Source: Octopus vulgaris
Lineage: Eukaryota
NCBI GenBank assembly: GCA_951406725.2
Contig: OX597815.1
Location: 198,338,001-198,402,000 of the forward strand
DNA length: 64,000 nucleotides
Direction: 5' to 3'
The notes below the pieces were generated by a model. That model did not search any database, was not told the origin of the DNA, and saw only the letters and a list, made by a program, of their open reading frames with translations. The position numbers were made by a program, and so were the translations under genes. This document shows positions 3,224-63,614 of the stretch, piece by piece (the stretch's first letter is position 1; the number at the start of each line of letters is the position of its first letter).

Positions 3224-3257
<34 letters not shown>

Positions 3258-3340
3258 CAACAATTGAGGGTAAAATTAATTAATTATTAATCAATTTCAC
3301 CAAGTGTTCAGTATGCAAAGGGACCATTTAAGGCGAATTC

Positions 3341-3727
3341 AAATTATTACATTATATAAAAGGGCTTAGTAAAATAAATTACTTCGCCGCATACTGAACT
3401 CATTAGAAATAGCAGCTAAAAAACTTTTTTAAAAGCTATTTCTAATACTTAAAGAGAATCTCTCTCATATATAGCGTTTGCTTAATTCAACTCACAAAAG
3501 TTTGGGGGTAAGGACATTAAAAAATCAAATGCTTAGCATTTGATTTTTTAATGTCCTTACCCCCAAACTTTTGTGAGTTGAATTAAGCAAACGCTATATA
3601 TGAGAGAGATTCTCTTTAAGTATTAGAAATAGCTTTTAAAAAAGTTTTTTAGCTGCTATTTCTAATGAGTTCAGTATGCGGCGAAGTAATTTATTTTACT
3701 AAGCCCTTTTATATAATGTAATAATTT
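3341..3727. repeat. Palindrome, 193-bp arms with 1-nt spacer, within a TA-flanked element (about 3257-3727)
   Basis: Centre aaatgct-t-agcattt at 3534. Arms match by eye out to 3341/3727. The left arm extends a further ~85 bp to the (TA)n at 3256. Confidence 0.95.
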
Positions 3728-3849: not shown

Positions 3850-3891
<42 letters not shown>

Positions 3892-3894
<3 letters not shown>

Positions 3895-4603
3895 TAACAA
3901 TTAAGGATAATCTCTTAATAAGGGATCTTAACAAGAAATTATCGGGTAGCTAGCGTGAAAACCTCATAAAAGAAAAGAATCCGAAAATAATTTTTTTCTT
4001 TTGAACAAATTAATTATATCTATATTGTATAGAGGGCATTATTACACATAAATGCCTCACACTAGGAGGGACAAAGTCATTACTACCAAAATTATACTAA
4101 TCATACCCAAATGCAGTTTTTCAAAGCAAGACATTTAAAAAATGAATTTAGTTCTGTATCACCGTGATTTCACATTCAACTTACGTCTAATGATCGTCAG
4201 CAGAACTGATTCTGAACACATCATAAATAAACTACCAACCTTACGTAGCGAAGACGAACAGACAACTGCTCACTCCGGCCAAGCACATGGAATGTTTATA
4301 AATCATATATCCGGTAAATGGCGGGCTTTTTACGAACTGCATGTCGGGTAATGAAAAGTATTTCGGAATAAGTTTAACAATTAAGGATAATCTCTTAATA
4401 AGGGATCTTAACAAGAAATTATCGGGTAGCTAGCGTGAAAACCTCATAAAAGAAAAGAATCCGAAAATAATTTTTTTCTTTTGAACAAATTAATTATATC
4501 TATATTGTATAGAGGGCATTATTACACATAAATGCCTCACACTAGGAGGGACAAAGTCATTACTACCAAAATTATACTAATCATACCCAAATGCAGTTTT
4601 TCA
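3892..4603 (-). mobile_element. HHR-bearing non-autonomous element, 1.48 tandem copies of a 480-bp unit, inserted in (TA)n
   Basis: 3892-4123 is identical to 4372-4603 (232 bp, period 480). The HHR lies in the intervening 248 bp, and (TA)n abuts both ends. Confidence 0.85.
4150..4207 (-). ncRNA. Type I hammerhead ribozyme (minimal, Penelope/retrozyme-like), core intact
   Basis: Minus strand reads AGUUCUG-CUGACGA-U-CAUUAGAC-GUAA-GUUGAAUG-U-GAAA-UCAC-G-GUGA-UA-CAGAACU. This gives a 7-bp stem I, canonical CUGANGA and GAAA boxes, stem II with a GNRA loop, quasi-palindromic stem III and an AUA cleavage triplet. Confidence 0.85.
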
Positions 4604-5684: not shown

Positions 5685-5759
5685 TTATATAATCATTATA
5701 ATAATAATAATAATACTAATGATGATGATGATGATGATGATGATGACGATGACGACGAC

Positions 5760-5791
<32 letters not shown>

Positions 5792-5792
5792 C

Positions 5793-5853
<61 letters not shown>

Positions 5854-6009
5854 TTGTTGATGATGTTGACGATGATGATATCTAAAACTAAAGTCAATGT
5901 GTGTTAGATAATCCAATTCAGTTCTGACGGATATCGCACAAGCAACTGTTACATAGAATTCTCTCATGAGATCTCTGACGGCGGTTAAATATTAAATAGT
6001 AACACACTA
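5685..6009. repeat. Left copy of inverted duplication (includes (AAT)n/(GAT)n microsatellite)
   Basis: Reverse complement of about 7766-8170, with roughly 3 mismatches in the ~130-bp unique part. The ORF track shows near-identical peptides on opposite strands. Confidence 0.92.
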
Positions 6010-7652: not shown

Positions 7653-7701
<49 letters not shown>

Positions 7702-7765
7702 ACAATTTAGGAATGGTCTTAACAGGCCATTCGTCCACTAGACAGAGCAGCCATAACTCCAACCG

Positions 7766-8037
7766 TAGTGCGTTACTATTTAATATTTAACCGCCGTCAG
7801 AGATCTCATGAGAGAATTCTATGTAACAGTTGCTTGTGCGAAATCCGTCAGAACTGAATTGGATTTTCTAACACACATTGACTTTAGTTTTAGATATCAT
7901 CATCGTCAACATCATCAACAACATCATCGTCGTCGTCATCATCATCATCATCATCATCATCATCACCATCATCATCATCATTATCATCACCATCATCATC
8001 ATCATCATCATCATCATAATAATCATCATCGTCATCG

Positions 8038-8072
<35 letters not shown>

Positions 8073-8097
8073 GTCATCGTCGTCATCGTCGTCATCG

Positions 8098-8134
<37 letters not shown>

Positions 8135-8170
8135 TATCATCTTCATTAGTATTATTATTATTATTATAAT
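7766..8170. repeat. Right (inverted) copy of 5685-6009 with longer (CAT)n tract
   Basis: tagtgcgttactatttaatatttaaccgccgtcagagatctcatgag... is the reverse complement of 5880-6009 and continues through the triplet repeat. Confidence 0.92.
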
Positions 8171-8173
8171 TAT

Positions 8174-8210
8174 TATCTGGCATTAGAAATTTTCTCCTGC
8201 CCTTATCTTG

Positions 8211-8276
<66 letters not shown>

Positions 8277-8313
8277 CAAGATAAGGGCAGAAGAAAATTT
8301 CTAATGCCAGATA
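8174..8313. repeat. (TA)n-centred palindrome with ~40-bp unique arms
   Basis: tatctggcattagaaattttctcctgcccttatcttgtaaa-(TA)n-tttacaagataagggcagaagaaaatttctaatgccagata, one mismatch. Confidence 0.95.
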
Positions 8314-8717
8314 CGCCGAAACAAACAAATTTTCGATACGCATTAAATTTATGCGTCTCGAAACAAACTGATAGAAATCTCTAAAATAAATCCGTTATTA
8401 CCGTATTGGTCCAATTTGGGGGTTAATTCACAAGAAATTTTCCCCTCGTCAGCGGCACATACGCGAGATATACGAAATACTTATTCATACCCACGGAAGA
8501 AGCAAGCACCAAGTCCCGAGCAGATTTAAGTACCCCAATATATCCAAATAGAAAAATCTTCGGCGCACCTCGAGACACGTGTGATTCGAACTAGAAACTT
8601 TCACAGAGTGATAGAATCCGGAAGTGAAACACTAATCTATTTATAATTGATATACGATAAAAAATTTTTGGGGAAAAAAATTTTTCCCGAAAAAAATTTT
8701 ATTGTATATCAATTATA
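8274..8717 (-). mobile_element. TA-flanked HHR element ending in a hairpin (8642-8717)
   Basis: Bounded by (TA)n on both sides and contains the HHR at 8400-8456. Imperfect palindrome tataattgatatacgataaaaaattttt...aaaaaaattttattgtatatcaattata. Confidence 0.65.
8400..8456 (-). ncRNA. Type I hammerhead fold with G12>C core substitution (probably inactive)
   Basis: Minus strand reads GCCG-CUGACGA-GGGG-(19 nt)-CCCC-CAAA-UUGG-A-CCAA-UA-CGGU. All three stems pair, but CAAA replaces GAAA. Confidence 0.75.
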
Positions 8718-8744
8718 TATATATATATATATATGTATATATGT

Positions 8745-9056
8745 AAAATTCTATAATTATAAGCATAATCATGATTAGGGTTCAGCAAAAATTGCTTCAC
8801 CACATACCAAAATTTGGAAATAGCAGTTAAATACTATTCTTATAGTAGTGGAATAATATTTAACTGCTAAACCTAATTTTCCGTATGTGGTGAAACAATT
8901 TTTCCTGAACCTTAATTATAATTATGCTTATAATTATAGAATTTTTTTATAAGGTTACCGATAATGGTTCTTTTAACATACCGAACTACTTGGTAAAATT
9001 ATTAATTATTAATTGATTAATTAATTTTACTCTTACGATGTTGCATAGTATTACAT
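8745..9056 (+). mobile_element. Diverged relative of the 3257-3727 element, with imperfect palindrome 8745-8945
   Basis: The reverse complement of 8961-9043 aligns with 3257-3330 (gtaaaattaattaat...ccaagt.gttc.gtatg...gaccatt). Arm aaaattctataattataagcataat... pairs with ...attatgcttataattatagaatttt. Confidence 0.75.
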
Positions 9057-9123
9057 TTAATTCTTTAAACATATATACAGCTTTACATAGACCATGCAAG
9101 TGTATATATATATATATATATAT

Positions 9124-9407
9124 ATAGAATGGTTGTATACAGTCAATCTAACACGAACGTGACAGTACGGGGGTACACCACTGCTGTATAGCCCTAGGAA
9201 GCATCGACGCCTCCTGATGGCTTTGACACATTTTTCCTGTGTCCTTATATACATTTACGAGTATATATATACGTAAATGTATATAAGGACACAGGAAAAA
9301 TGTGTCAAAGCAATCAGGAGGCGTCGATGCTTCCTAGGGATATACAGCGGTGGTGTACCCCCCTACTCTCACGTTCGTGTTAGATTGAGAGTATACAACC
9401 ATTCTAT
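9124..9407. repeat. Palindrome, ~136-bp arms around a short TA run, between (TA)n tracts
   Basis: atagaatggttgtatac...catttacg-agtatatatata-cgtaaatg...gtatacaaccattctat, with several arm mismatches. Confidence 0.95.
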
Positions 9408-9456
9408 CGCCCCACCACCATACATGTCTCTATGAGAGATTTAGAAATTTAGTATT

Positions 9457-9529
<73 letters not shown>

Positions 9530-12392: not shown

Positions 12393-14002
12393 GAGGTAGG
12401 TAGGTAGGTAAGTTGGACAGAAAGGAGCAAGTGATGTAGGTGTGCTAGTATATATATGTATATATGTATGTATGCATGTAGGTATGTATGCATTCATCTA
12501 TGTATGTATGTACGTAAGTAGGTAAATTGATCGATAGATTGGTGGATAAATAGATATCGATATAGATAGATTACTAGATTAGATATGTATGGAAAGTGAC
12601 AATCAGTGAAGAGAATATAACAGATGTAATTGATCTGATATACTTTTCATCAACGTTTTCTGCAGAAATCCCTGTCACACAAAATAAATGGGATGAATAT
12701 CAGAATTGAAAAGATGGTGAATATAAAACATTGGAAAGTGGTCTGAAGAAAGTATAGTTTTCAGAAACACAAGGTTAGAGGTCACTAAAGAAAAAAATAA
12801 TCTAAATATGGTAGGTTATATCCTGGGTAAAGAAAATAGGAACCAGTGTCAGCATAGCAGGCTCTTGAAAATCAATGAAGGATAGCTTTAGCAACAACGG
12901 ATCAATGAAAATGAATATCAATGGAAAATGATATATGAAAGTTTGAAGCAGGTAATCACCTCTGATGAAATAACTGGAGCAAAGCATTTCAACGTAACAT
13001 GGAATTGTTCCGGTTACATAAATTTAACAAGAAATAGAAAGTAGGTCAGGACGAATTAATATAAGTATTCCAGAATGAAAAGCAGAAGATGGTGCTTGAA
13101 AGATACTAAATATATCACTCCGATGCAGAGTTAGAGCAGATTTTTACTGACTACTCTTAGTAAAAGGTCTATTCATATGCCATCCATGGAATACGAATAT
13201 GCCATACTTAGAATACAACACAGTGACAAAAGCAAATGGTAAAGGAGAAAGACCCCTTCGGTCATAAATTACCAGCAACAACACACTCTTAGTTGTAAAT
13301 ATCGTGACCATCAAGCTCACACCCTTGACCAGACGTCTATAATAACCTCTGACGTTAATGATATGTCAGAGGTTCTTATACACTCTTGACCAGACGTGTA
13401 TAATAACCGCTGACGTTAATTAGAGCAACGTTTCAATATGACGTAACGGTAAAAAAAAGAAATTACGTTTCTAATTAAAACTTTATTCAATCCACCAGCC
13501 TTCTTTCCGGCACATCTACAAAACTGAAGCCATTAAGTAAGATAGCAACGTAGGGATTCTATGACCAATTGCACAAGTGGAGAATCGTGGAGAAATCTAC
13601 ACCATACTTACAAGGATCTAAAAAATTCAACTGATGCGTAGCTGAAATAACGTATATTCGTATCTTATCCAAGACATACGTCACACTACTTACATCCAGT
13701 TCGTTGTTTTCGGCTTTTACTCATCCATGCTCTTCAAAAACCGCATTTTGCATCAAACCACATCACGTTTTTCTACAGTGGATTCTTATGTAGCTGAGGG
13801 CTGATTTACAAATTGAACACATCATGTTCTCAGTATCATACATTCAATGGAATCACAAGTCACGTTATAAAATCCTGCCTAATCACGTGTCTTAATGGCA
13901 AAAAACTATTAGTAGCTCTTATTATTATCATACAGTGTACTTTAAATGATATTAGATGGAATACATGTTGATATTACCTTAAGGGAACAGTAAAGCATAT
14001 AT

Positions 14003-14170
14003 ATAACAAGAATGGTTATAATTATAAAGTATTATAACAATTACATCTAAGAGTGTTTCAAAACCCTCACATGTTTAGGGTGTTATTTCTAAACATGTAA
14101 AGAATTTGAAACCCTCTTAGTTATAATTGCGACTTGTTCATAATTATAAACAACATCCTCCTTGTATGTA
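14003..14170. repeat. Decayed palindrome
   Basis: ctaagagtgtttcaaa...acatgtttag-(10 nt)-ctaaacatgt...tttgaaaccctcttag, with outer arms ttataattat/ataattataa. Confidence 0.6.
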
Positions 14171-18618: not shown

Positions 18619-18619
<1 letters not shown>

Positions 18620-18835
18620 TTTATTTAAAAGCAGCAGAAATTCAACAAAACCTGTTTCACGTTCCCGTTCGTTGGACAGTTTTTGTTAAAAAAATGTCCG
18701 ACGAACGGGAACGTGAAACTCAGAGTAACAGGTTTTGTTGAATGTCTACTGCTTTTAAATAAAGCATATTACTCTACCCCTTGTATTTGAGTACTCTTTT
18801 TTCCACCTTGTTTCACATTTATGTGTTTACTCCGA
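18619..18835 (+). mobile_element. TA-flanked HHR element with inverted partial copy at its 5' end (palindrome 18619-18764)
   Basis: ctttatttaaaagcag..aacaaaacctgtttcacgttcccgttcgttggaca pairs with tgtccgacgaacgggaacgtgaaac...caggttttgttgaa...ctgcttttaaataaag. (TA)n on both sides. Confidence 0.85.
18695..18730 (+). ncRNA. Minimal type I hammerhead fold, U4>C variant
   Basis: UGU-CCGACGA-ACG-GGAA-CGU-GAAA-CUC-A-GAG-UA-ACA: three stems, GNRA loop on stem II, GUA triplet. Confidence 0.75.
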
Positions 18836-18852
18836 TATATATATATATATAT

Positions 18853-20745
18853 AAACTTAGATATGTTTCAACTAAAGTTTTGCCCGGGCCATGTCGAACT
18901 TAATAGCACCACCTGATAGGATTATCTAAATCCTTAAGTCACCGTTAGTGGTACCATGTTCAATTCGAGTAGGGTATTCTTGTTGGCTGAGTTGTATTCA
19001 AGCATAGATGGCTTACCATGTATTTCTACAAGAAAGGTTTCTGGATTACGTTTAAACGTAATGGGATCCATTTCTTCTCTGATCTGTTTCGGGGCAGTGT
19101 TAAATAAGGCAGAAAAAGAAATTGTGCTGCAGTGTAATCATGTGCTGCGATCCTGAATGTAAGGGTCATATGGCCCGTGTTTCTAACTTTGGATGGCTTT
19201 TGAAGCTAATGTTGAGGTCGTTTGGGCAATGCTGGTCGTATATTCTATACATTGTGCAAATGATGTATCGCTCACGGCGGTGTTGGGGAGAGTAGAGTTT
19301 AATGCTTTAAGGCGGTCCCAATAATCTAACAAAAGTCATGAACTTAATTCTTTTAGTGAATGACCTCTGGAGTGATTGAATTTTCGAGATTGTTGCTTTG
19401 TATGGGGAGATCACAGGGGGCAGTAGTATTCGAGGTGTGGCCGTATAAAGAAGGAGAAAAGTGGGATGATGACATCATGTTCTCTGAACAGGAGGGGTCT
19501 TAGCATCCAGGAGTTCATCGTAGGAGCTATAACGACCTTATTAATGATGTGAGTATTCCCAGTGAGATTATCAACAATTACTCCTAGGTCTCTGATATTA
19601 TTAGTTTTTCCAAAATTCATCAGTTCAAAATTTCCCTCATTTAGTTGCATTTTATTTTTGTCTGGCCATTAACTCACAGCATGTAGTTGAGACTAGAGTC
19701 GAGTTCGGTCTTCTTCATTGATAATTTTCTGGAGCTTAGAGTCATCAGCAAATATTTTCACTTTGCTGTGTTATATGATGCTAGAAAGGTCGATTATATA
19801 GATTATAAAGAGGAGCAGGCCCAAGTCAGTACCCTGAGGGACACCACTGGTGACTTTTTCTGGGCTTTAGTGGATTCCATCAATCACATGGTGTGTTCTG
19901 TTCACCAGGTAATACTCAATCCAGTTTAGAAGTTTTCTAAAGATTCCAATATTCGTCAATTTCAATAGTAGGATATTATAGTCAGCTCTGTCGAACGCTT
20001 TACTGAAATCAAGATATATGGCATCAGAGTCCGAAAAAGCTCCCAAGGCTTTAAGTATATCATCGATGTGGTGTAAGAGATGTGTGAGACAGTCTCTGCC
20101 GCAGCGGAACCATGCTGGCTTGAATTTAGGAGTGTGGGGCTCTCCAGGAACTTAGCCATCCTTGATATTACTGTCCTTTCAAACGCTTTAATGATATGGG
20201 GGGTTTGTGAGACTGGGCGATAGTTGACTGCGAGGGATCTGCTTCCCTGTTTGAAAACCTTGATGACAGACTGGGATATGAGCTGTTTCGGTATCTTAAT
20301 GGTGTCAACATTTGTTCAGGAGATTAGGGACAAATCTATCAGGGCCTACAGCAGAACATTGCTTGACCTCTTTAATTGCTGCTATCATGTCTGAAGCAGT
20401 GAATACTATGTCTGTGATTTTGTTGGGAATAGACTTCGTTCACATCCCTTACGTCAATATCAGTGGGATCACTAAAGACAGAGCACTATTGTTTCTGTCG
20501 TATTTCTGCAATTTTTTTGCTGTGTTGGAGAATGCCGTTATCATTGATCAATGGACCAATTGGTGAGATAGTGGCCCTATGCTTATTTGCATATGAATAG
20601 AAAACATTTGGGTTCTGATTCTTTTTATGTATTAACCCCTGTTCCGCGGCAATTCTCTGATTTTCAATGTAGATTTTCATGTAGGTCTGCAGAAGCTGTT
20701 TCCAACTCCAGCATTTTTATTGTAGTTGAATGTAGATGTTATTTG
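18853..20745 (-). mobile_element. 5'-truncated, frameshifted CR1/L2-group LINE (reverse transcriptase pseudogene plus 3' end)
   Basis: Minus-strand motifs NYRPVSQTPHIIKAFER, IYLDFSKAFDRAD, SGVPQGTDLG, KIFADDSKL, RDLGVIVDN and FIRPHLEYYCPL. The 3' UTR is homologous to 56626-56720. Confidence 0.93.
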
Positions 20746-21893: not shown

Positions 21894-22246
21894 GGCGACG
21901 AAATGCTTGGCAGTATTTTGTCTGTCTTTATGTTCTGAGTTCAAATTCCGCCGAGGTCGACGTTACTTTCCATCGTTTTCGGTTCGACAAATTAAGTATC
22001 AGTTACGTACTAGGATCGATCTAATCGGCTGGCACCCTCCTCCAAAATTTCGGGCCTTGTGCCTAGAGTAGAAAAGAAAAAAGAATATTTCTTTGTAGAA
22101 AGGCGGCGTAATGCTCAGCGGTATTTCGGCTGTTTTTACATTCATCCTTCAGAGGTAGATAAATTAAGTCCATTTTGCGTACTGGGGTCAACTGTTCCCT
22201 CGTCCCAAAACATTTCCGGCCTTAAGCCTAGAATTGAAAAGAATAT
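21894..22246 (+). mobile_element. SINE family B, two tandem partial copies
   Basis: gagttcaaattccgccgaggtcgac..tt(c)catc..ttcgg.tcga.aaattaagta.cag...ggccttgtgcctagagtagaaaag. B-box-like gagttcaaattcc; the family recurs across the window. Confidence 0.8.
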
Positions 22247-22589: not shown

Positions 22590-22623
<34 letters not shown>

Positions 22624-22689
22624 GTATATATATATATATATATATACAAAGAGGTATACGTTGATATATATGTATACTATACTTGGGCC

Positions 22690-23045
22690 ACTTTTTTCCA
22701 TTATGAATATTAACATTACTGACGCCATCAAACACAAAAACGTTGCCCGACTTCTTGCATTGTATGAAGAAACGGATCTATTTCCATAGTCCAAAAGGAG
22801 ATATCAAGGGCTTCATTTCGCCCAGCCTGCAGAACTATTGTCAAAGAGGAGCGGTTTGAACGGAAGATTATATACTGCATTTGGTGGTATTTCGTGCGAG
22901 AGTTGCATTTTGAGATTGTTCCGGGTGTTCCTACTTTGAACTCTAACACTCATGTTGAAAAACCGTAGCGAGCGGACAATGCTTTGTCAGCTTGCTACGA
23001 GGCATTTGTCAATCAGAGAAGCACTCTTCTACAGCAATATCTGCT
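22690..23045 (+). pseudogene. Decayed mariner (Tc1/mariner, DD34D-type) transposase fragment
   Basis: CMKKRIYFHSPK (cf. TCDEKWIY..P), then from 22822 PACRTIVKEERFERKIIYCIWWYFVRELHFEIVPGVPTLNSNTHVEKP*RADNALSACYEAFVNQRSTLLQQ (cf. KKVMLCVWW...HFELL...TINS...YPALVNRKRVLLQQDNA). Stops and frameshifts present. Confidence 0.8.
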
Positions 23046-23266
23046 AATGTAACCTAGCGTAAATGTAAGTAACTTGAAACGCTACAGATGCTGTATCACA
23101 CTGTCTAAAGTCCAGACTCTGTACCTTCAAATCATGACAGTTTCTGAGCCATGGCTCATTTATTGCACGGAATGTCGCAATGAAACTTAGCTCATGGCAC
23201 AACGATGGCAACAGCCAGTAAAATATGACGGGGTATATTTTGATGAATAAAAACATTGCAACAACC

Positions 23267-23346
<80 letters not shown>

Positions 23347-23481
23347 ATGTATATTTATATAATATAAGGAGAAAGAATGGGTTATAGAATTGTTCTGCAT
23401 AAATAGTTTTGAAATTTATGTATATCTGATTATAATTAACGAATCTGCAACACTTCGATGGATACAGTTTATGATATAATG

Positions 23482-23571
<90 letters not shown>

Positions 23572-24132
23572 TAACAAACATAACCAGAATTTGAAATATT
23601 TAAATCGGGAGCATACACATATCTTTCCAATTTAATTCGTTAATCTTTAAAAAGAAAGATAAAGATATTTGACAAAATATTAATAATAACCATTGTCAGG
23701 ACATGTAAGTATATTTCCATACACATAATGTAATAGATTATTGTCTGTATGGTAATTCTAAGAGTATATTTGAATTTTCGCATATTTTAATTTCAGTGAG
23801 ATTTGGCAAATTTTCTTAAAAAACCACAGAATGTTGTGTTTATAACTTAATCATGATACCGAAACAAATAGATTTATAAATCTTACGTCAAAATTTATTG
23901 AAAATTTTCAACATATGCCTCGTCTGTATCCTTCCAAATTTCAACTCTATCCTTAGCGTTGTGAAACACATTTTGAAGCATTTGTGGAGTAATCGCCTGC
24001 GCTGGTAACTGAATGCGTTATTTATGTTCAGATAAACTACTGCTCCGTATAACGATAGAGGCAGGTTAGATGATGGCAGCCAAATTGAAAAAAAGAACTG
24101 TGATCCAGCAGGAATGAATATAGAATTAACAA

Positions 24133-24240
24133 AAATAAACTTAAAGATTATAAAATTATAGAACAAATTAAAAATTTACACACTATATAGTGTGTAAATT
24201 TTTAATTTGTTCTATAATTTTATAATCTTTAAATTTATTT
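24133..24240. repeat. Spacerless palindrome, 54-bp arms, centred on ctatatag
   Basis: aaataaacttaaagattataaaattatagaacaaattaaaaatttacacactat|atagtgtgtaaatttttaatttgttctataattttataatctttaaatttattt, one mismatch. Confidence 0.95.
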
Positions 24241-24549
24241 CAACATGAGTGTTAGAGTTCAAAGTAGGAACACCCGGAACAATCTCAAAATGCAACTCTC
24301 GCACGAAATACCACCAAATGCAGTATATAATCTTCCGTTCAAACCGCTCCTCTTTGACAATAGTTCTGCAGGCTGGGCGAAATGAAGCCCTTGATATCTC
24401 CTTTTGGACTATGGAAATAGATCCGTTTCTTCATACAATGCAAGAAGTCGGGCAACGTTTTTGTGTTTGATGGCGTCAGTAATGTTAATATTCATAATGG
24501 AAAAAAGTGGCCCAAGTATAGTATACATATATATCTACGTATACCTCTT

Positions 24550-24551
<2 letters not shown>
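24238..24551 (-). repeat. Near-identical inverted copy of 22647-22960
   Basis: The identical 73-aa ORF appears on opposite strands (22728-22949 minus, 24249-24470 plus). One mismatch seen; both copies run into (TA)n. Confidence 0.97.
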
Positions 24552-24592
<41 letters not shown>

Positions 24593-24596
<4 letters not shown>

Positions 24597-24671
24597 CTCA
24601 CTTTTATGTTTATCTTCTTTAATATGAATTATAAATTCATATTAAAGAAGATAAACATAAAAGTGAGATTT
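24593..24671. repeat. Perfect palindrome, 38-bp arms with ATA loop
   Basis: aaatctcacttttatgtttatcttctttaatatgaatt-ata-aattcatattaaagaagataaacataaaagtgagattt. Confidence 0.95.
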
Positions 24672-28240: not shown

Positions 28241-28431
28241 CTCTTTACTCTTTTTACCCTTTTACTTCTTTCAGTCATTTGACTGCGGCCATGGTGGAGC
28301 ACCGCCTTTAATCGAGCAACTCGACCCCGGGACATATTCTTTTCAACCGCTAAGTAACGGGGACATAAACACACCAGCATCGGTTGTCAAGCAATGCTAG
28401 GGGGACAGATACATACACACAAACACACACA

Positions 28432-28488
<57 letters not shown>

Positions 28489-28616
28489 AGAAATTAAATA
28501 TAAAATATAAATTACAAAGTAGGACAAGAACGCAAAAACACACAAAGAGACGACACAAAAAAAACAGACGGGTCATTCGAAGCCTCTAATCTTCAGTCGG
28601 AACCGGATCATCTTAG

Positions 28617-28655
<39 letters not shown>

Positions 28656-28835
28656 CACACACAAATACATATATACGACAGGCTTCTTTCAGTTTCCGTC
28701 TACCAAATCCGCTCACAAGGCTTTGGTCGGCCCGAGGCTATAGTAGAAGACACTTGCCCAAGGTGCCACGCAGTGGGACTGAACTCCGGAATTATGTTGT
28801 TGGTAAACAAGCTACTTACCACACAGCCACTTCTG
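28241..28835 (-). mobile_element. SINE family A with a ~130-bp foreign insertion (28490-28620) in its TA tract
   Basis: 3' half at 28241-28435 and 5' half at 28670-28835, homologous to 29481-29910. Confidence 0.88.
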
Positions 28836-29480
28836 ATTAATAACGGCTTCTAATTTGGGTATAAAGTTAGAAATAAATAGCTGATATTCTCGATTCCAGT
28901 ATGTGACTAATACTTAATCATATTGCTCCACATTGATGAAAGTAGATCTCGATGGTACTTGAAGTGAAAACATAAAGCGATGGAAGATATAATTTAGTAC
29001 ACTTCCTTCAACGCTAGAATGATTACCTCACCTCGTCTTAAGATAATTAATAATCCTTTTTACGATAGGCGCAAGGGATGACATTTCGCGGGAAGTCTCT
29101 ATTCGGTGATATCGACGCCAGAGCCCGAATGGTATGTATTTCATTGACGCCGAAAGGACGATAGAGAAAGTTGACTTCGCAGAAATATAAACTCGGAACA
29201 TTAAGATATACGAAATTTCATCGGTTTCCAATTGATGAAAGGCAAAATCGACCACGGTAGGATTTGAACTTAGAACGTCAACATGGATGATATTCCGTTG
29301 GGTTTTATCTGATCCGGTAATGCCCCTTCCTGCAAACCACTGTTAAGGAAATTAACAACACCTCTTTCTAATCGTAGAATTAAAATTGTGTATATTATAT
29401 AATCCATGATACTCAAAAATACTCCATCAGAACTACTAAGTGTAAATTTTCTAAAAGGTAAATAGCTCTTATGTTAATAT

Positions 29481-29709
29481 CTCTCTTTTCTCTCTTTTAC
29501 TTGTTTCAGTCATTTGACTGCGGCCATGCTGGAGCACCGCCTTTAGTCGAGCAAATCGACCCCGGGACTTATTCTTTGTAAGCCCAGTACTTATTCTATC
29601 GGTCTCTTTTGCCGAACCGCTAAGTGACGGGGACGTAAACACACCAGCATCGGTTGTAAAGCAATGCTAGGGGGACAAACACAGACACACAAAAACATAT
29701 ACACACACA

Positions 29710-29748
<39 letters not shown>

Positions 29749-29910
29749 GACAGGCTTCTTTCAGTTTCCGTCTACCAAATCCACTCACAAGATATTCGTC
29801 GGCCCGGGGCTATAGCAGAAGACACTTGCCCAAGATGCCACGCAGTGGGACTGAACCCAGAACCATGTGGTTGGTTAGCAAGCTACTTACCACACAGCCA
29901 CTCCTGCGCT
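29481..29910 (-). mobile_element. SINE family A, full-length
   Basis: Reverse complement of the 52409-52794 element. Confidence 0.9.
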
Positions 29911-31169
29911 TATATGGATTAATTTTACTTAAGTGCATCACCGGAAGTATTAACAAATCCTTGTAATTGCTGTTATAAGGCCAGAAAAACTATGAGTGCG
30001 GAAATGTGAATTTAAGCAATATAACTGCTTCTCTCTAAATTTGAACATTAAATTGTGTTTATTTTGCCTTTTATTTCCATCGTGTCATTTACATAACGTA
30101 TATTAATATAATAGGGTGCATTCAGTATCCTAAAATTACTGTCAATATTTACCCACCCATTAAGCAAGTGTATATTGGACGATATTGCTTTATCCCTTTT
30201 TTCTCTTTTTCTTTTGTTTGATAATTAAACAACAAGATTTCTCTTAGTGAATACAGCGTTGTGCTAGAATATCTTGATTCGTAAAGACTACCTATCTTAT
30301 TGCTCTATGATATTGCTATAAAAGAAATCATCTTCTGACAACGTTTAAAATAGAGAAAGTTTTTGCTTAGACAGCTATATCATACTTATCATACAAGCTT
30401 TAGCAAGACCTTCTCCACTTTGTCAATCAAAAGCATATTCATATAACATTGAAATGCATATTTATATCACAGTAGATTTACCATATTCATATAAAGTCAT
30501 GGCCTGCTGCGCTCGGTTTAAAAGACAAAGGATCATCAGCTCCACAAGAACCATTTCTGTTACAGGTACAATTCCTGTCATTTATAGAAGTGGAGGCAGT
30601 CGATTACGACGATGAAACTACACAAATATTATTTTATCGACACCCGAGGGGCAAAGTCGACCTCAGCAGAATTTGAGCTCAAAACCTAGATACGACAAAT
30701 ATGCCGTTAAGAAGCATTTCCGGCGTGCTAACTATTCTGCTAACTCGCTTCTGCTAACTTCACTGCAGATGTATGAAAAGCGCATTTCAATATTTAAAAG
30801 AGCACATATTTGTGATCCAGGTAATTATAAATTCATATGGTTATAAAGACTGTGAGAATTGCCATAAAAGGAAATCAGACAATATAAATAATAATTTACA
30901 GTGAGACATAAATTGTTATAAAATAGAAATGCACTACATTTCATTTTAACCCGAATATAAAACAGAAGTTATGCTTTCATTAAATTCAAGAGAATTTTTA
31001 CAGCTTCGGCACATCACAATTTCGACGAAGACTTCGAATTTATAATCTAGTTTAGACAGCAGTATTTTTAATACATTTTATATATGAAATTGTAGAAAAG
31101 ATAGAATTTATAATTAAATAATATTTAATACTCTTTTAGTGAAAAATAGCAAAATTGATGTTATATATA

Positions 31170-32581: not shown

Positions 32582-32886
32582 GTTGCTGAAGGAAGAGAAA
32601 TTCAGTTTCATTGACATCTGGAAGAAGAATTTACCTAAACAGTCGTATTCCTTTGGTTCGTTTGAGCTCTCTTTAATGTCAAATTATAACAGCATCTCGT
32701 GTGCAACTGTGTAATTCGGTCTGAGATGGTGAGTCGCGTGGGTCCTTAGAACTTTCAAGTTCAGAGAATCTGATACAAGCATCCTCCCATGTATATGTGC
32801 ACTAGGTAGGCAGGAGTAGGATGCCCGCAATGTTCTACCAACAAGTCCAAATATGTCATTACCATCATTGAAGCAACTAAGAGAAT

Positions 32887-33349
32887 AGTATTCTTTTGTA
32901 TTCTAGACGCAACGCCCGAAATTTTTGGAGGTGATGGACAGTTGATTAGATCTATACCAGCACGCAGCTGGTACTTAATTTATCGACACCGAGAGGATGA
33001 AAGGCAAAGTCCACCTCGGCAGATTTTTGAATTCATACCCTAATGACAGACGAAATACCGCTAGGCACTTCCCCCAGCGTGCTAACATTTCTGCCAGCTT
33101 GCCGCCTGTACTCTGAGAATAATATTCTTTCCTACTCTAGCCACAAAGCCCGAATTTTTGGGGAAGGGGAATAGTCGATTAGCTTTTTCCCAGTACGCAA
33201 ATGGTACTTAATTTATCGACCCCACACCCCTCCAAAGGGTGAAAGGAAAAGTCGACCACGGTAGAATATGAACTCAGAACGTAGAAACATACGAAATACC
33301 GTTAAGCATTTCGCCTGGCGTGCTAACGTTTCTGCCAGCTCGTCGGCTT
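32887..33349 (-). mobile_element. SINE family B, two head-to-tail copies
   Basis: ggtacttaatttatcgac...gaaagg.aaagtc.acc.cgg...gaaataccg.ta.gca.ttc.cc..gcgtgctaac.tttctgccagct occurs twice (about 32887-33108 and 33119-33349). Confidence 0.85.
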
Positions 33350-33790
33350 ACTCAAACAATATTATTAAATTAATTATGTTGTATAGAACGCATTAACTAT
33401 TTGTATGCTATGTTGTGGGTTCCAACAACACATTTGCAATGACGAATAAATTAAATCCGTCCTTTCGAGATCTTGTTCATATCAAAGTTCAAAAGACGCC
33501 CAAAGTTTAAACCCATAGCCGTACATATCCTATAAAACTTGAGAACATATTATTTATCTATATTCATCATTAATTTGAAAGGCTCTAAAAACTAAGCTAA
33601 AAACCTTCATCATATTTAAATAGAACATGCATGTCTTCCAAAACACAAATAAAAGACCATTGATACCTGGATGCTTCGCAGTAATCAACAACTCCTCATA
33701 TGATTATCTATGACTGAGAAATCTGCTCTAGTTTCGAGAAATAATCTCGAGATGGTGTGAACCAATGATGGCCATAACGTGCATACCATG

Positions 33791-42662: not shown

Positions 42663-42758
42663 TTTCGATGACTTCGCAAGGTGGTGCTAGTAATTTAAAA
42701 ATGGCCTGTGTCAATACTAGCCGAGACCTATGAAATGATCAAAGTATACGTGTATATA

Positions 42759-42808
<50 letters not shown>

Positions 42809-42851
42809 TATATACACGTATACTTTGAACATTGTTATATATATATATATA

Positions 42852-43120
42852 CGCCATGCTAGATCGTTAGCCACTACACACATTTTTCTTTCCTTGTTTT
42901 CTGTGTCCCTTTCTGTAGAAGAGCGTAGGCTCGAAACGTAAAAGACTTTTTTCTATTCTTGAGCGTTATACTAATACATGTTTGTTTTGTACACCACCTG
43001 TCCTCGTCTTTTGTTTTTTTCCGTAAACTCTCCCTATATATATAGGGAGAGTTTACGGAAAAAAACAAAAGACGAGGAACGGTGGTGTACAAAACAAACA
43101 TGTATTAGTATAACGCTCAA

Positions 43121-43125
<5 letters not shown>
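42852..43125 (+). mobile_element. TA-flanked HHR element with TA-centred fold-back (palindrome 42954-43125)
   Basis: tattcttgagcgttatac...aaactctccc-tatatatata-gggagagttt...gtataacgctcaagaata, two substitutions. Another copy lies at 51724-51895. Confidence 0.88.
42909..42944 (+). ncRNA. Minimal hammerhead-like fold (CUGUAGAA core variant, loopless ACGU stem III)
   Basis: CUUU-CUGUAGA-A-GAGC-GUAG-GCUC-GAAA-CG-UA-AAAG. Confidence 0.65.
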
Positions 43126-43160
<35 letters not shown>

Positions 43161-43207
43161 GTATACTTTGATAATTTTCATGGTCTCGGGTAGTACTGGC
43201 CCAGGCC

Positions 43208-43244
<37 letters not shown>

Positions 43245-43245
<1 letters not shown>

Positions 43246-43412
43246 GACGAGTTTCTTTAGTTAGAATCTTTCTACCAAATCCACTTGCAAGGCTTTGGTT
43301 ACTCCTAGGCTATAGTAGAAGAGAATTGCCCAAGGTGTTATGCAGTGGGACCGAACACCAAACCATGTGGTTGGGAAGCAAACTTCTTACCACACAGCCA
43401 CGCCTGCGCCTA
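43245..43412 (-). mobile_element. SINE family A, 5' half
   Basis: ctaccaaatccact..caaggctttgg...gcccaaggtg...cttaccacacagccacgcctgcgcct. Confidence 0.8.
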
Positions 43413-43539
43413 TATATACATATATATGAACGTTTTATTCCGAAAAGAGTTTATGCAAATAAATACAATAACAATGAAACTGAGAATGGTATCTGTTGAA
43501 GCTGAAAATTGTATTGATATTTAGTAATATATGTTTTAT

Positions 43540-45702: not shown

Positions 45703-47853
45703 TATATACCTTCGTGCTTACATGCGTATAATCATACATACATGCATGGTTATATATACATACACACACACATATATATATGCATTAGATATATGTATAT
45801 GCAATATATATATATGTATATGCATTTATCCTTATATGTCTGTGTATGTGTGTTTGTATATGTATATATATCTATATATAGTAGCAGTACTCGCAACGAT
45901 AAGTTTTTGCTTTATTAGGTCGTATGACTTAGTAAATATCGATACGTAGATTATTTCAATATTATATGGATTACTTTCGACAGTAAAATAGTTAAATGGA
46001 TATAACAGCATACAAGGTATCACCGACTCTTTTATCTTTCCAAACACTGAGCATGACGAAAACGAATCCTTTCCTTCAAGTATGCTACTCCATATAAAAA
46101 GAAAGAAAATCAAAGAGAGAAATCCGTCAATATTCTATTGAAACTTAATGTAAATTTTACGTAACCTGGACATGCTCAATGGTTCAGAAAGAATCTGATC
46201 AAATGACTGCGTTTTAGCTGAACACGATGATTTTCTTTTTATTTGCTCTTCCTGTGCATTTTATGCTTTTGTTCTTGTGTTTTTACTTGTAAGAAATTGA
46301 TCCTTTGTATTTTAATTGCATTGCACCTCGTTGTTTGAAATAAAATTAATGCTGAATGTTATTTTTGCTCTTCAAAAATTTAGGTTCAAACCAGTATTGT
46401 CTTTATTAATATTACAGAATTGTAATTCATTAGATCGCTAGTGGTAGCAATCTCTCTTATACGATGTGGAGGAAAGGAAGTATAACAATCAAGCCTGCAC
46501 TCTCTTTACCTCTTCTACATTCCATATATTAATTTACTTCATCTCATGCATCTTCTAGAATAGAACAATTTAAGAATTTTTAAAATTTAGCGAGATATTA
46601 CAGCAGTGGTGAGAGTACTTGGTTAAATATAAATTTCAAATCTCTTTAAGGAAAAAGAAGTTGGCAATGAAATCAGTTTAATTATCATATCAATTGATGC
46701 ATGACATGTGTCATTCTCATACACGTAATTTTACAAAGGACATTTGTGTGTAACATAACGCTACTATCACAGCCATTGTCAATTCAAAATTTATAATAAA
46801 GATTCATATTTTCAGTACCTTCTTCCTTTAGTAAATGTTCCGATAAACATATTAACTGCCAGAGTGTTGTAAATTCTATTACCAAGTCTACATCACAGAA
46901 AATCGTGATATTCATTTAAAAAATCATACTGAATAATTATGTTCTTACATTTGTCTCTATTTAAAATTTTTTTTTTTGCTTCACAGGACAGTTTTAAATC
47001 AATGAACAACTGATTTTAGATTTGCAATGTTGAATAAAATTCACAAACACGTCACAGTCTCTTTTCATTTATATTCAGCTCTTCTTAGACTTGTTTTCAG
47101 CAAGGAAAGGACTGGATTTTATTATTTTTATAAATTGAGTTCCTAGAAAATATGAAGATTTTATTTGTTTTCTTGAGATTTTTACATTGTTCGAGAATAT
47201 TACGACTACTTTAAAGCAGGGTGGGGTCTTTTTTAGATATTCAGTTTTATATTTTAACTTTCCAAGCATGAAATTCTGTGTTGGCATAGCGTATGTACAT
47301 TGTACACAAACATGTCTTGAGAAATAAAAGAAAACATTCGGCTTTCAGGAACTCTCAAAATTCAATAATCATGCCACCGCCATTTTCTTTATGCATATAT
47401 ATGTACATACCATATTTATTTTCTACGATATGTTTCGGTACAAACACACACACATATGCGAGACAGTGGGGTGAGAGAGAAGGGTGATAGGGAGAGTGGA
47501 GAAAGAAAAGAAAAATAAGGGACTCAACACATTTAGTAGTAGCTAAATGTATCCTTATTTGCAATTGCTTGATTCGTATACATGCTATTTAAAGCTTCAT
47601 AGGTTTCTAACAATTCATTAGAACCTAAAGCTTGGACGAAAAGTCAATAAAATTTTAAGACACACCAAGGGCCGAATGAAAGTGTTTTATATAATATTAA
47701 TATTAATAATAGTAACAATAATATTATATGTCTGTGTATGTTAAATAACAAACAGTATCGTTTGTAGTTCTATAATTAAGAGATGAGGAATTATTTATAT
47801 TATTTACATTATTTACATTTGACAGATATTTGTCCTCATCTTGTATGTTGTTA

Positions 47854-47897
47854 ACACAACGTTTCAGCTGATATACTCTCCAGTCGTCATCAGGTGT
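47854..47897 (-). ncRNA. Minimal type I hammerhead fold
   Basis: ACAC-CUGAUGA-C-GACUG-GAGAGUAUAU-CAGCU-GAAA-CG-UU-GUGU. A more decayed copy lies on the plus strand at 48293-48336. Confidence 0.75.
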
Positions 47898-48000
47898 CTT
47901 GATGAAATTTCGAACCTACCCACAGGCACATGGCGTAGTGGTTAAGAGCACAGACTACTAACCCTGAGATTCTGAGTTCGATTCCAAGTAGTGACCTAAA

Positions 48001-48017
48001 CAATAATAATGATAATT

Positions 48018-48072
<55 letters not shown>

Positions 48073-48178
48073 CAGCAGCAGCAGCAGTAATAATAATAAT
48101 AATAATAATAAGAAGAAGAAGAAGAAGAAGAAAAAGAAGAAGAAAAAGAAGAAGAAGAAGAAGAAGAAGAAGAAGAAG

Positions 48179-48210
<32 letters not shown>

Positions 48211-48230
48211 AAACAACAACAATAATAATA
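48001..48230. repeat. Compound trinucleotide microsatellite (AAT)(AGT)(AGC)(AAT)(AAG)(AAC)(AAT)
   Basis: Direct reading. Confidence 0.95.
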
Positions 48231-50779
48231 TCGAAAAATACTTTTCGATATTATTATTGAGAATGAGAACCCAGGTTTGAAATTTCCCCAAGGCACTTGG
48301 TGAAGGCTGGAGGGTATATCAGACGAAGCGTTGGGTTAACAACAAACATGATGAGGACAAATATCCGTCAAATATAAATAATGTAAATAATATGCATAGC
48401 CTATGGTTTATACTCCGTAGCTTACGTGTGAAGCATGTTCACTTTCATTTTGTCCATTTCAGATAATGAGAGGGATGGAAAATAGAATATTCGAGAAATT
48501 TTATTAATCGCTACAATTGTAGTATCAACCCATCACGGGTGGGATCATTATCGAGTGAAAAGAAAGAGACACGTGGGGTTGGAGAGCCCCTGGAAATGTC
48601 ACAGGCAGTAGACATAAAATAAGTTATACAGTATATTTGATTTAAGCGTGTTCATATTTCCGACGCACGTTTCTATTGCATAGGCAAATAGCAATTGCAT
48701 TAGTAACTAGGTATTTTCAACACGCTATTAATGTATGCAACTAAATTCAATGCGTTTACTGATGTAGTCTGAAGCTAACTAAGTGCATGTGAGTTTAGCT
48801 ATATTTTTGTGTCCAATGAATGTGAGAGAAAAATTTGAAATCCTGATACGGCTGTAAAAACTGCTGTGAAGTTGACTCTATCCTGACCCCAAGTTTGAAG
48901 TTTCAATTGAGGATACTAGACTTTTAATTACGTCAATGTATAATTTTTAAAACACTAGCCCTAGGTGGACTACTGATCTTAAGATTTTGAGTACAATTAC
49001 AGGTTATTTATTTAGAGTAATTAGATATATGAGATATGTAGAATTTACTTGTGAGGCCAATTCAAAACTACCTATTTGTATAAATAATGTTTTAAATTAC
49101 ATGCAGTTTCCTCATGCAATATGTGTTGCAATGGTGATTGCTACTTGATATAGGAAAACTAGTAATTAAACTAGCATTTGCCACGTAAACTCAGGCGACT
49201 TCTATTTACATGTCACTTATATAATTACGAATCCCTCCAATGGAAGTATCTAAATACCCTTCTGTGTCGGTGCGAACATCTTAGTGTCTTTTAGTGCCTT
49301 TAGCAACTGGTGTAAGGCTGTAGAAATATGGAATATTTCTTCTATGCATAAATTGCATAATTTTACCCAGAGAATGCAAGATTCAGCTACGGCTATTATT
49401 TTCCATTCAATATTAAATTTGGTGTTCCTTTCACTAAGGGACCGGATAAGTTTGTGCTATTCATTTTCTCTCAATCCCTAAATGAATGTAAATGATTCGC
49501 CAGACTCGCCTTGAAATTTGTCGAGCATGCACCATTATAAGAGTGCGAATATCCTCCTGGCGTCACCTTACACCTGTATACAATATTTTCACCGTTCTTC
49601 GGACAGATCTCACTTTTTACAAAAATATGAGTATTTTTGCCTTTCGAAAATGTGGCTATGTTAGTGAAATCAGAATTAGATACCCCCTCTGTTTCTCTAC
49701 CAACGGATCTACCAGTGTCTGCATTTCTCCTGTCCTCTCAAATTACCGAGTTATTTGTCTAGCGTTTACTGTGTCAAATTCAGCTTCTTAATGAATTATA
49801 ACGGTTGTCTCCCTTCTCCGGCTTGCCTCGGTTTTACTGTTTCTAACCCTATCATTATATGTATGATCTGTATTTTCACAAAAGTATTCAAGATATTGCT
49901 AGGTTGACTATCTAACGTTTTGGTTGGATGTGTGCTATTATTGTTTTCCTTACCTACTTTACTGCTGTATATCTTTATCTTTTTGTATGAAATATAGATA
50001 ATCTCCAAATGTTTTATTTATACTTGGTCGAACGTCTTATTTCTATACCTCCGATCCTGAGTTTCAGAAAATGCAAAACACAAATCATTTAAACAAACAG
50101 TTACACAAAACCTACAGAGTGTACAATCGTAAAAAATGCCACAACATTTTGATGTATTCAGTATTGTAATATTTCATTACTCAAGTCTTTAATCTTATAT
50201 TAATTGTCGTTTGATGAATTCTGAACTGAAGAAATCTGAAAGGTTCTCAAAACCATCATACGTAATTTAAGATTTGAAATTCTTTCAAATGATTCTCTGT
50301 TAATTTTTCTCCAGATTTTTATTTTATTTAAGATTATACGTGTTATGATAATGGTTGTAATTATTCTCGATATTGTTCTTATTTTAGTACTACAATTATC
50401 CCTTTATATCAAAGCTTATCTCCTTCATCAGAATCTCTCGATTTCAGACGATGTCTCTTCAATTTCTTTTCAATTCAATTTATTATAATTGATTATTTCA
50501 TGTGAATTTATTTATTCATTTGATTTACATTTGATAAATTGCTTCTTTGCATTTTGTTTGCTTTTCACTTCCACTTTTGTGAAAATTGGCAATTATCATT
50601 AAATTGATTTGTTTTAAAATATATTTCTGTATTACGCATACTGTTTTATGTTTTATTTTTGTTCCTTCATGCGAATACATATATATATATGTATGTGTGT
50701 GTGTGTGTGTGTGTGTGTACAGAAATATACATATATGTACATATATATATATATACATATACATACATACTCAAACATT

Positions 50780-51627: not shown

Positions 51628-51895
<268 letters not shown>

Positions 51896-52354: not shown

Positions 52355-52399
<45 letters not shown>

Positions 52400-52408
52400 T
52401 ATATATAT

Positions 52409-52794
52409 AGGCGCAGGAGTGGCTGTGTGGTAAGTAGCTTGCTTACCAACCACATGGTTCCGGGTTCAGTCCCACTGCGTGGCATCTCGGGCCGACCAAT
52501 GCCTTGTGAGTGGATTTGGTAGACGGAAACTGAAAGACGCCTGTCGTATATATGTATATATATATATATGTATGTGTGTGTTTGTGTGTCTGTGTTCGTC
52601 CCCCTAGCACTGCTTGACAACCGATGCTGCTGTGTTTAGGTTCCCTTCACTTAGCGGTTCGGCAAAAGAGGCCGATAGAATAAGTACTGGGCTTACAAAG
52701 AATAAGTCCCGGGGTCGATTTTCTCGACTAAAGGCGCTGCTGCAGCATGGCCGCAGTCAAATGACTGAAACAAATAAAAGAGAGTAAAAGAGTA
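52409..52794 (+). mobile_element. tRNA-derived SINE family A with internal (TA)/(TG) tract
   Basis: Head ggcgcaggagtggctgtgtggtaag (A-box-like) and gggttcagtccc (B-box-like), central microsatellite, tail gcatggccgcagtcaaatgactgaaacaa-(gagtaaaa)n. Confidence 0.9.
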
Positions 52795-54171
52795 ATATAT
52801 AGATCCACATATATATGACTTCAAATACGCTAAACAAACAATGACCGTTACCATTGCTCTACGGCATAAACTGTTTAACTTCATACAGTTAATGCTTGCT
52901 TTCAAAACGAATGTATATTTTGAACCTAGAATGTTAGTCATAGAATATACATAAAGCTGGGAAGCGCTGAATGTTTCTTATACGCGTTAAGGCTGTATTT
53001 GGATACCAGACCTCGTCAATAAAAACTTATGCTGAATGCGGCTGGAAAATTTCTACCAGCTCGATATCGGAGTAAATCTGAGAACCGGTTTGCAGTGTTT
53101 CTGTTCTGGCTTAAGTCATTTACATGTTAAGAAGTAGACAGAAAATTATATGATTCTACATACTCTGAAGAAAGTTCTAGTTGTGTAGCAATTTGATGGT
53201 ATTTTATGAATATTTAAATATGAGAACTCGTCCGAACAGATGAACTACGATTGAGAAACACGCTATGTGAAGTGTGTGTGTATGTGAGTGTCTGTGCGTG
53301 TGTGTGTATACATATATACATACACACGCATATTCAGATAGTTAGAAATCCTATAAAGAAATGAATTGCTGTTACGCTATGCAAGTATTAAAAGCGATTT
53401 GTTCTTTTTTTTATATTTTCTATAAATGGTGAACACAATCAATTCTGTGGTAAAAACCTCGACACTTCGATTGCAACGAACTAAGTTAATTTTGTTGCTC
53501 ATGAAAAATATAGCTTTTTGTGGGAGATGGATGAGGAAAGATTAAAAGTGATAAAAAATAAACATAAAAGATGTCCAGCTGTACTTGATGAAACATCAAT
53601 AATGCAGGTTTTATGAGGTCCAGAAAATATGTTAAGGATAATAAAGTTGATTAAAATCAGATAATCCAGTACTGTCGTTTGAAATCATGCAATCTAGTTT
53701 CCTCTGAAATATTGATCATTTCTTTGATTGTTCTCTTTTATGTATGTGCCACAGGAGGATTAATGAATTTGGAGGGGAATTGGTTATTTTATGGCATTTT
53801 CCACAAAATTCTTTCTTTTGACTTTTGTTTGAAATTTTCGTTTCATCATTTCTCAGTATTTCAAATACACAATTTATTTAAATATTTGAATTTCATAAAT
53901 TCAGCATCAATTGATGAAGTTTGCTATGTAACCATTAGCAGGAGAATTACTGTTACTACTTCTAATGATAATACTAACACGTACAACAACAACAACAACA
54001 ACAACAACAACAGTAATAACAAAACGTATCTAATTCAGGCACGAGTCCAGGATCTTTGAACAGTAGGCGGTTAGTCGAAGTCATTGATTGCTATTTTATT
54101 GAGGTAAAGTTTAGCTAACTGGTATATGAAACCGTACAGTATTTTTTCGACGCTCTAATTCTCCTTATCAC

Positions 54172-63599: not shown

Positions 63600-63614
63600 C
63601 ATATATATATATAT

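Follow-up and report, generated by a model that had tools for sequence, protein, structure and literature searches.

What kind of event could have produced an insertion made up entirely of inverted copies of its own surroundings and TA repeats? This question is raised by a locus in the genome of Octopus vulgaris, which we analysed within a window of 64,000 nucleotides (assembly GCA_951406725.2, contig OX597815.1, positions 198,338,001 to 198,402,000 of the forward strand). All coordinates below refer to this window.

The inserted DNA comprises 444 nt (24190-24633), and a five-piece model accounts for 444/444 inserted bases with two mismatches (Table 1). The insertion is bordered by two palindromes. 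The left one (24133-24240) has arms of 54 nt with a single mismatch (24140/24233) and no loop, and the right one (24593-24671) has arms of 38 nt without mismatches around a loop of 3 nt. When folded as DNA, they gave z values of -18 and -17, respectively, and none of 200 shuffles was as stable as either of them. Between the palindromes lies the inverted distal copy, which together with the TA tracts is identical to the donor and its TA tract at 339 of 341 positions; its (TA)21 tract measures 42 nt, against 22 nt for the perfect run at the donor. The junctions overlap by 1-3 nt (3 nt between the left arm and the distal copy, 1 nt between the TA tract and the right arm, and 1-2 nt at the tips), and TATA is present at both hairpin tips. 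Every element of the structure that had been described in the original prediction, which was made from the sequence alone, was thus recovered: the 54-nt and 38-nt arms, the 314-nt inverted copy, the TTT and the (TA)n.

Table 1 Features of the insertion locus and its donor, in window coordinates
Feature	Position	Strand	Remarks
TA tract left of the donor	22620..22646		11 perfect units at 22625-22646; copying ran into the tract
Donor of the distal copy: microsatellite edge and decayed mariner-like transposase stretch	22647..22960	+	
Mariner-like similarity past the copied part; identifies the donor side	22961..23050	+	Weak E-values
Left flank, presumed original arm and template of the first fold-back	24133..24183	+	AT skew
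Three-unit TA site at the left hairpin tip; putative break site	24184..24189		
New arm, inverted copy of the left flank	24190..24240	-	50/51 identical
TTT microhomology, switch from left arm to distal donor	24238..24240		
Inverted copy of 22647-22960	24238..24551	-	313/314 identical
(TA)21 linker	24552..24593		Exceeds the donor perfect run by 10 units
New arm, inverted copy of the right flank	24593..24630	-	38/38 identical; 1-nt overlap with the TA tract
Loop of 3 nt at the right hairpin tip	24631..24633		Loop and 24630 repeat the left-tip TATA
Right flank, presumed original arm	24634..24671	+	AT skew +0.29; next 100 nt +0.03, weak

The outer arms are presumably the originals and the inner arms the new copies. 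The AT skew of the sequence agrees with this assignment on the left, where the flank (+0.32) resembles the preceding 100 nt (+0.33), and is uninformative on the right. The insert length is divisible by three, and one reading frame stays in register from one side to the other, probably by chance. Six-frame read-through of both flanks detected no Pfam family at E < 0.1, and the frame spanning the insert gave only chance PDB matches. An in-register frame of this kind, without homology, provides no evidence of coding.

The direction of copying was deduced from the donor. At the donor, Pfam Transposase_1 was matched with E = 0.018, below the curated cut-off, and five of five PDB matches were Mos1 or SETMAR (E 0.06-0.42). 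These alignments proceed past position 22960, to query residue 73 for Mos1 and 88 for SETMAR, while the copy ends at about residue 64-65. The mariner query found no match in a large protein set or in plasmids. This weak but consistent similarity suggests that the donor is a decayed mariner-like stretch. Since the mariner similarity continues at the left copy, albeit with weak E-values, the analysis supports the predicted direction, with 22647-22960 as donor and the right copy as product.

We interpret the structure as a fixed germline repair product without a function of its own, which arose when a two-ended break at a six-base TA site was repaired by snap-back synthesis from both 3′ ends (probability about 0.75). 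First, the three-unit TA site would have been cleaved on both strands, so that each of the two 3′ ends terminated in TATA. Second, the left 3′ end would have paired with itself by 1-2 bp and been extended for 51 nt in the reverse direction along its own strand, the product being the left inner arm. Third, this end would have been released and, by way of TTT, paired again with the same strand at a site 1.2 kb upstream, where it would have copied 314 nt and a TA tract; both this product and the microhomology are present in the sequence. Fourth, the right 3′ end would have folded back and copied 38 nt, a product that is also present, although the choice of the inner arm as the new one is presumptive. 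Finally, the two new tails would have been joined at the TA tract, which may have been lengthened by slippage then or later. The two palindromes support the predicted fold-back at both ends, and the predicted template switch to the same strand about 1.2 kb upstream, with an exit through a TA tract, is supported as well.

Several details are consistent with this series of steps. Apart from TA, all inserted bases are inverted copies templated by the very strand that is being extended at its 3′ end, and the TATA at both tips would be expected from a staggered cut. At endonuclease breaks in yeast, inversions of fold-back type arise that span 2 to ~150 bp and use 0-5 bp of microhomology (PMC11724301), and stem-loops with two base pairs at the terminus are extended by Pol theta (PMC11292364). 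R2 insertions are also known to snap back onto the cDNA or nearby target DNA (PMC11371274). Less favourable to this series of steps is the right tip, which permits just one priming base pair. Judged from the sequence, the tips would fit blunt hairpin sealing as well as they fit self-priming, and a single-pass template switch during replication would yield the same product. The polymerase may have been a host enzyme (Pol theta or delta type) or the RT of an element. As for the cutter, the GIY-YIG endonuclease of a TA-targeting Penelope-like element (PLE) appears to be the best candidate, acting without copying of the element RNA, and we give about even odds to the snap-back repair having started in this way with no element copied in.

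The scar is not a single oddity but one of a recurring class in the window. In the 64 kb there are 11 strong hairpins (score of at least 18), that is, nine besides the two described here, with no such hairpin in each of 20 Markov shuffles. Because all 20 shuffles lacked a hairpin and none of 200 folded as well as either palindrome, chance is excluded. The arms of the window hairpins are 70-100% identical, and the density is about one per 6 kb if all hairpins are counted. The outer ends of 10 of 14 hairpins lie within 10 nt of a TA tract, compared with 195 of 2678 random intervals; this list and its borders were drawn by hand, with the hairpins at 14013 and 18420 added by eye, and the count is 8 of 12 without these two. 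The window contains 171 TA tracts with at least four units, 55 of which have at least 10 units, and 116 short TA runs like the three-unit target. Among the older hairpins are those at 14013-14152 (70% identity, beside a short TA run) and 13335-13383 (80%).

PLE-type elements were also recognised in the window. Four minimal type I hammerhead motifs with a palindromic stem III were found, at 42913, 47853, 51815 and 63464. Under the strict rule no motif appeared in any of 25 shuffles, and under the relaxed rule the maximum was one, in 5 of 25. All four motifs reside inside inverted-repeat or TA-anchored repeats, and hammerhead motifs of this type mark PLE terminal repeats (PMC6765202, PMC4209133). 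In two of the four, one core position is altered. The motifs at 42913-42944 (plus strand) and 51815-51846 (minus strand) share an identical change at core position 6, which might represent a variant ribozyme. As monomers, the motifs folded no better than shuffles; dimer folding is expected for such motifs (PMC4209133). No hammerhead appeared among the best 150 of 396 Rfam matches of the window or in two small scans, and the matches listed were only miRNA-like hairpins under the gathering score.

The layout reported for PLEs (PMC8557442) was observed at 3256-3727, 8745-9033, 18619-18836 and 63203-63606, each with a TA tract, an extension restricted to one end, an inverted partial copy and a TA tract. 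The element at 3256-3727 is related to that at 8745-9033, and the element at 18619-18836 to the direct repeat at 3888-4603 (0 of 60 shuffles in each case). For elements without a hammerhead, the PLE label is provisional and is based on layout alone. Two of these structures appear as young head-to-head hairpins of PLE type, one with perfect 193-nt arms (3256-3727) and the other with a hammerhead motif in its right arm (63203-63606). The direct repeat at 3888-4603 (236 nt, 99.6%, period of 480 nt) lies between TA tracts and looks like a short non-autonomous partial tandem. At 47797-48393, an inverted pair (86%) with a hammerhead motif surrounds a trinucleotide microsatellite cluster and a hairpin with 18-nt arms (48220-48259).

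A PLE protein could not be confirmed in any part of the window. Pfam searches of 300 of the 320 open frames in the window (at least 48 aa) revealed no GIY-YIG domain and no host gene exons; the only matches were RVT_1 at 19870-20151 (E 0.007) and one FIIND match, the latter taken as chance. A PLE-protein candidate of 90 residues at 4125-4394, within the direct repeat at 3888-4603, was rejected after a deep search, which gave one bacterial TPR protein as a spurious match. Two LINE remnants, with the weak RVT_1 match, lie on the minus strand (18937-20315 and 56754-57230) and are 73.5% similar to each other; a search with a LINE remnant gave 67 homologues. Two dispersed SINE-like families, which we take to be octopus-type repeats, are located at 28244-29915, 43208-43427, 52392-52798 and 58048-58440 and at 21899-22078, 32881-33366 and 59686-59906, respectively. 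A SINE-like frame found no match in the sequence search.

Fold-backs of host flanks lie next to PLE-type ends in one clear instance at least and in two that are less clear, and the clear co-insertion is a small sample of one. In the clear case (42734-43122), the left host flank has been copied back over 29 nt (28/29) across a TA tract, and this fold-back is joined via (TA)8 to an element end of similar age that carries a hammerhead and forms its own hairpin (75/77). A second copy of this element end is found at 51716-51880. The surrounding region (42693-43245) shows nested events, with the young composite placed within an inverted duplication of that flank (87.5%) of greater age, whose copy follows at about 43156-43217.

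The segment 7699-8313 is composed of a TA tract, 67 nt without an assigned source, a stretch copied in inverted orientation from about 5690-6009 and a right-flank fold-back. The source of the distal copy lies 1.8 kb upstream and was copied together with its microsatellite (127/130 identical outside the microsatellite), and the right-flank fold-back (39/40) is joined by a 3-nt overlap. This segment repeats the anatomy of the scar at 24190-24633. The 67 nt at 7699 have no significant match to any other element end in the window. The composite as a whole (7676-8313) has its right-flank fold-back around (TA)30. A fold-back of the left flank (8640-8713) borders on a PLE-type element, with a TA tract between them. 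The order within 8640-9460 is left fold-back, TA, PLE-type inverted element, 70-nt spacer, TA, a hairpin with 133-nt arms (9127-9404, which ends the cluster and may be of host or element origin), 57 nt and TA. The arrangement is possibly that of a double fold-back enclosing an element.

The link between the scar itself and PLEs is circumstantial. PLEs have a preference for (TA)n and give rise to inverted structures (PMC8557442); their palindromes have been interpreted as products of self-priming, and host DNA is captured by them (PMC3846280). A purified PLE protein is able to cleave as well as extend the two strands of AT-rich DNA (PMC11167929). An inverted palindromic junction is one such PLE feature (PMC3846280), and two palindromes are present here. 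The target deduced for the scar, three TA units with TATA at both tips, is shorter than the usual (TA)n targets of PLEs. The insert contains no PLE sequence, pLTR, tail or hammerhead, as 444/444 nt come from the flanks, the donor or TA, and none of the four hammerhead motifs is located within 18 kb of it; Naiad-type PLEs are without a hammerhead (PMC8557442). In 22 comparisons of the insert flanks with 11 element ends or neighbours there was no match (best, 3 of 100 shuffles), and no other copy of the flanks or of the approximate empty allele was found in the window at word size 7.

Two causes of the break had been put forward in the original prediction. The first, cleavage of a TA cruciform, was not borne out: the target has three TA units, whereas fragile TA sites are scored at six units or more and breakage rises with length (PMC13645644). 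A cruciform at this site is unlikely, and the prior loss of a longer run is possible. The second, abortive action of a PLE endonuclease/RT on host DNA, gains circumstantial support from evidence not used in the original prediction. Hammerhead-bearing ends of PLE type have the same anatomy of fold-back and (TA)n, and a host fold-back is joined to one of them, but the insert itself yielded no PLE sequence.

An alternative that we consider unlikely, though it deserves serious weight, keeps the same two-ended snap-back repair but attributes the break to the host (replication collapse, a topoisomerase or a structure-specific nuclease), with no PLE involved and host end-joining polymerases doing all the copying. 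The insert without PLE sequence fits this alternative, as do the fold-backs at plain endonuclease breaks in yeast and the finding that breaks occur at TA repeats and are mended by Pol theta (PMC13645644). Because TA tracts are abundant in the window, PLEs and host breaks could also gather there independently. However, the deduced site falls under the six-unit threshold of the same study, the yeast fold-backs are mostly shorter than 14 bp (PMC11724301), and host fold-backs in the window adjoin PLE-type ends in the cases described above.

A replication origin without any break is improbable. Here a stalled leading strand would switch to the opposite parental strand, make three backward copies and return, as in FoSTeS or short-range template switching, with two of the copies behind the fork and one 38 nt ahead of it. 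All three copies are indeed reverse complements of the plus strand and can be drawn as one path, and complete hairpins have arisen in one step in primates (10.1101/2023.04.19.537475). Nevertheless, the path requires four switches, one of which is a 2-kb jump on a single matching base, and it gives no reason for the location of the new arms, which terminate at TA tracts and lie next to PLE ends.

The break ends might instead have been sealed as covalent hairpins, by excision of hAT/RAG type or by a nuclease, and then nicked open 54 and 38 nt from the tips, after which the left tail would have primed on the distal donor. Excision of hAT elements leaves hairpin-capped flanks, and long inverted duplications follow excision of Tam3. 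The loop-less left tip would correspond to a blunt cut through the centre of the TA site, and the right tip to the same cut less 3 nt. On the other hand, the target duplication of hAT elements is 8 nt and no 8-nt duplication exists between the tips, which share 4 nt only. Palindromic additions from opened hairpins are usually of a few bases, and the PLE-type hairpins of the same anatomy would be left unaccounted for. We therefore judge this origin to be very improbable.

It must also be asked whether the structure is real. The copies are 99.5% identical, and inverted chimeras are typical of whole-genome amplification, so that an amplification chimera or a fold-back read could in principle have entered the library or assembly. 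However, the two differences are substitutions, the TA tract has 42 nt compared with 22 nt at the donor, and the window hairpins are of graded ages, with identities between 70% and 100%, which is not expected of an artefact; together these observations make an artefact unlikely. Such an origin would moreover require four clean junctions within one molecule, and we assign it only a very slight chance. We conclude that the scar is real and young and probably neutral, and this single locus shows no sign of function.

The age of the scar can be approximated from the divergence of the copies. They differ at 2 of 406 sites, or 0.49% (95% interval 0.06-1.8%). The three copies appear equally young (1/54, 0/38 and 1/314), with no difference by Fisher's exact test (p = 0.27 and 1.0). 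Using an octopus calibration in which a distance of 0.09 corresponds to 25 My (PMC13282606), the scar would be roughly 0.7 My old (0.1-2.5 My), if the arms have not been homogenised.

The least tenable explanation, a non-autonomous DNA transposon, MITE or foldback element at 22647-24551 with 314-nt terminal inverted repeats in a TA tract and hairpins formed by separate events, can point to two inverted copies each bounded outside by TA tracts, but it is rejected as extremely unlikely, as had been predicted, because the repeat is an excerpt from within a mariner-like catalytic region whose similarity extends further at the left copy only, the right copy stops and fuses by microhomology to a hairpin arm of equal age, and no further copies of these ends occur in the 64-kb window.

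The recurrence of the class probably points to an uncounted by-product of PLE activity. It is possible, though still speculative, that TA-targeting PLE enzymes act as a genome-wide writer of hairpins, often cutting TA sites and leaving behind only host fold-backs, local inverted copies and new (TA)n linkers. If so, 3-6 host-type events per 64 kb, in a window that is possibly a hotspot, would correspond to a number in the order of 100,000 scars per genome of a few gigabases. These would represent an uncounted class of retrotransposon mutation without transposon sequence and a source of TA microsatellites. Insertions of local DNA only escape repeat libraries, and such events therefore go uncounted. 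Where transcribed, the hairpins would provide ready-made double-stranded RNA for editing or new microRNAs, which would matter most in octopus. Scars without cDNA would also show that the fold-back step is independent of the element's own sequence; the formation of inverted structures by PLEs and their microsatellite bias are given as open questions in PMC8557442. In practice, perfect palindromes in such assemblies should not be dropped as chimeras by default.

In the literature surveyed, mostly open-access main texts, we found no description of two-sided host-flank fold-backs at PLE targets or of a dense hairpin class in octopus genomes. We found nothing on host-flank fold-backs in 10.64898/2026.07.22.740005 or PMC3072357, and nothing on hairpin footprints in the latter. 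Among known systems, PLE insertions with inverted pseudo-LTRs (PMC8557442, PMC3846280, PMC11167929) resemble the scar in their TA or AT-rich target, palindromic self-primed junction, capture of host DNA and (TA)n ends, and PLE-type elements surround the locus. The scar differs from them in having no element sequence, pLTR, tail or hammerhead, and in that the flank itself is folded, at both ends.

Templated insertions at double-strand breaks have reportedly been described in a study of SD-MMEJ snap-back repair. Fold-back and templated insertions induced by breaks (PMC11724301, PMC11292364) share inverted flank copies, microhomology of 0-5 nt and iterative switching with the scar. In contrast to them, the scar is folded at both ends, is primed at the very tip with 1-2 pairs, has a TA linker and a second segment of 341 nt from 1.2 kb away, and is fixed in the germline and recurring. 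The arms of 51 and 38 nt are inside the range of 2 to ~150 bp known from yeast, whereas the 341-nt segment is above it. At the 5′ junctions of R2 (PMC11371274), a 3′ end at a site cut by a retroelement likewise primes on its own strand or nearby target before joining, but those junctions have cDNA, while the cDNA length in the scar is zero and the second end is folded too. Template switches that create hairpins and miRNA genes (10.1101/2023.04.19.537475) similarly generate a complete hairpin of miRNA-precursor size in one event; the scar is distinguished by its multiple segments, its TA linkage and its association with PLE ends. TA-repeat fragile sites repaired by MMEJ (PMC13645644) also have TA at the break and as the joining microhomology, with at least six units compared with the three deduced here. 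On the basis of these comparisons, the scar would not belong to PLE insertions, as it has no element sequence, and it would agree with fold-back templated insertions in the features tested except for one long segment. Every step of the proposed mechanism, as we have drawn it, is already known from one or another of these systems.
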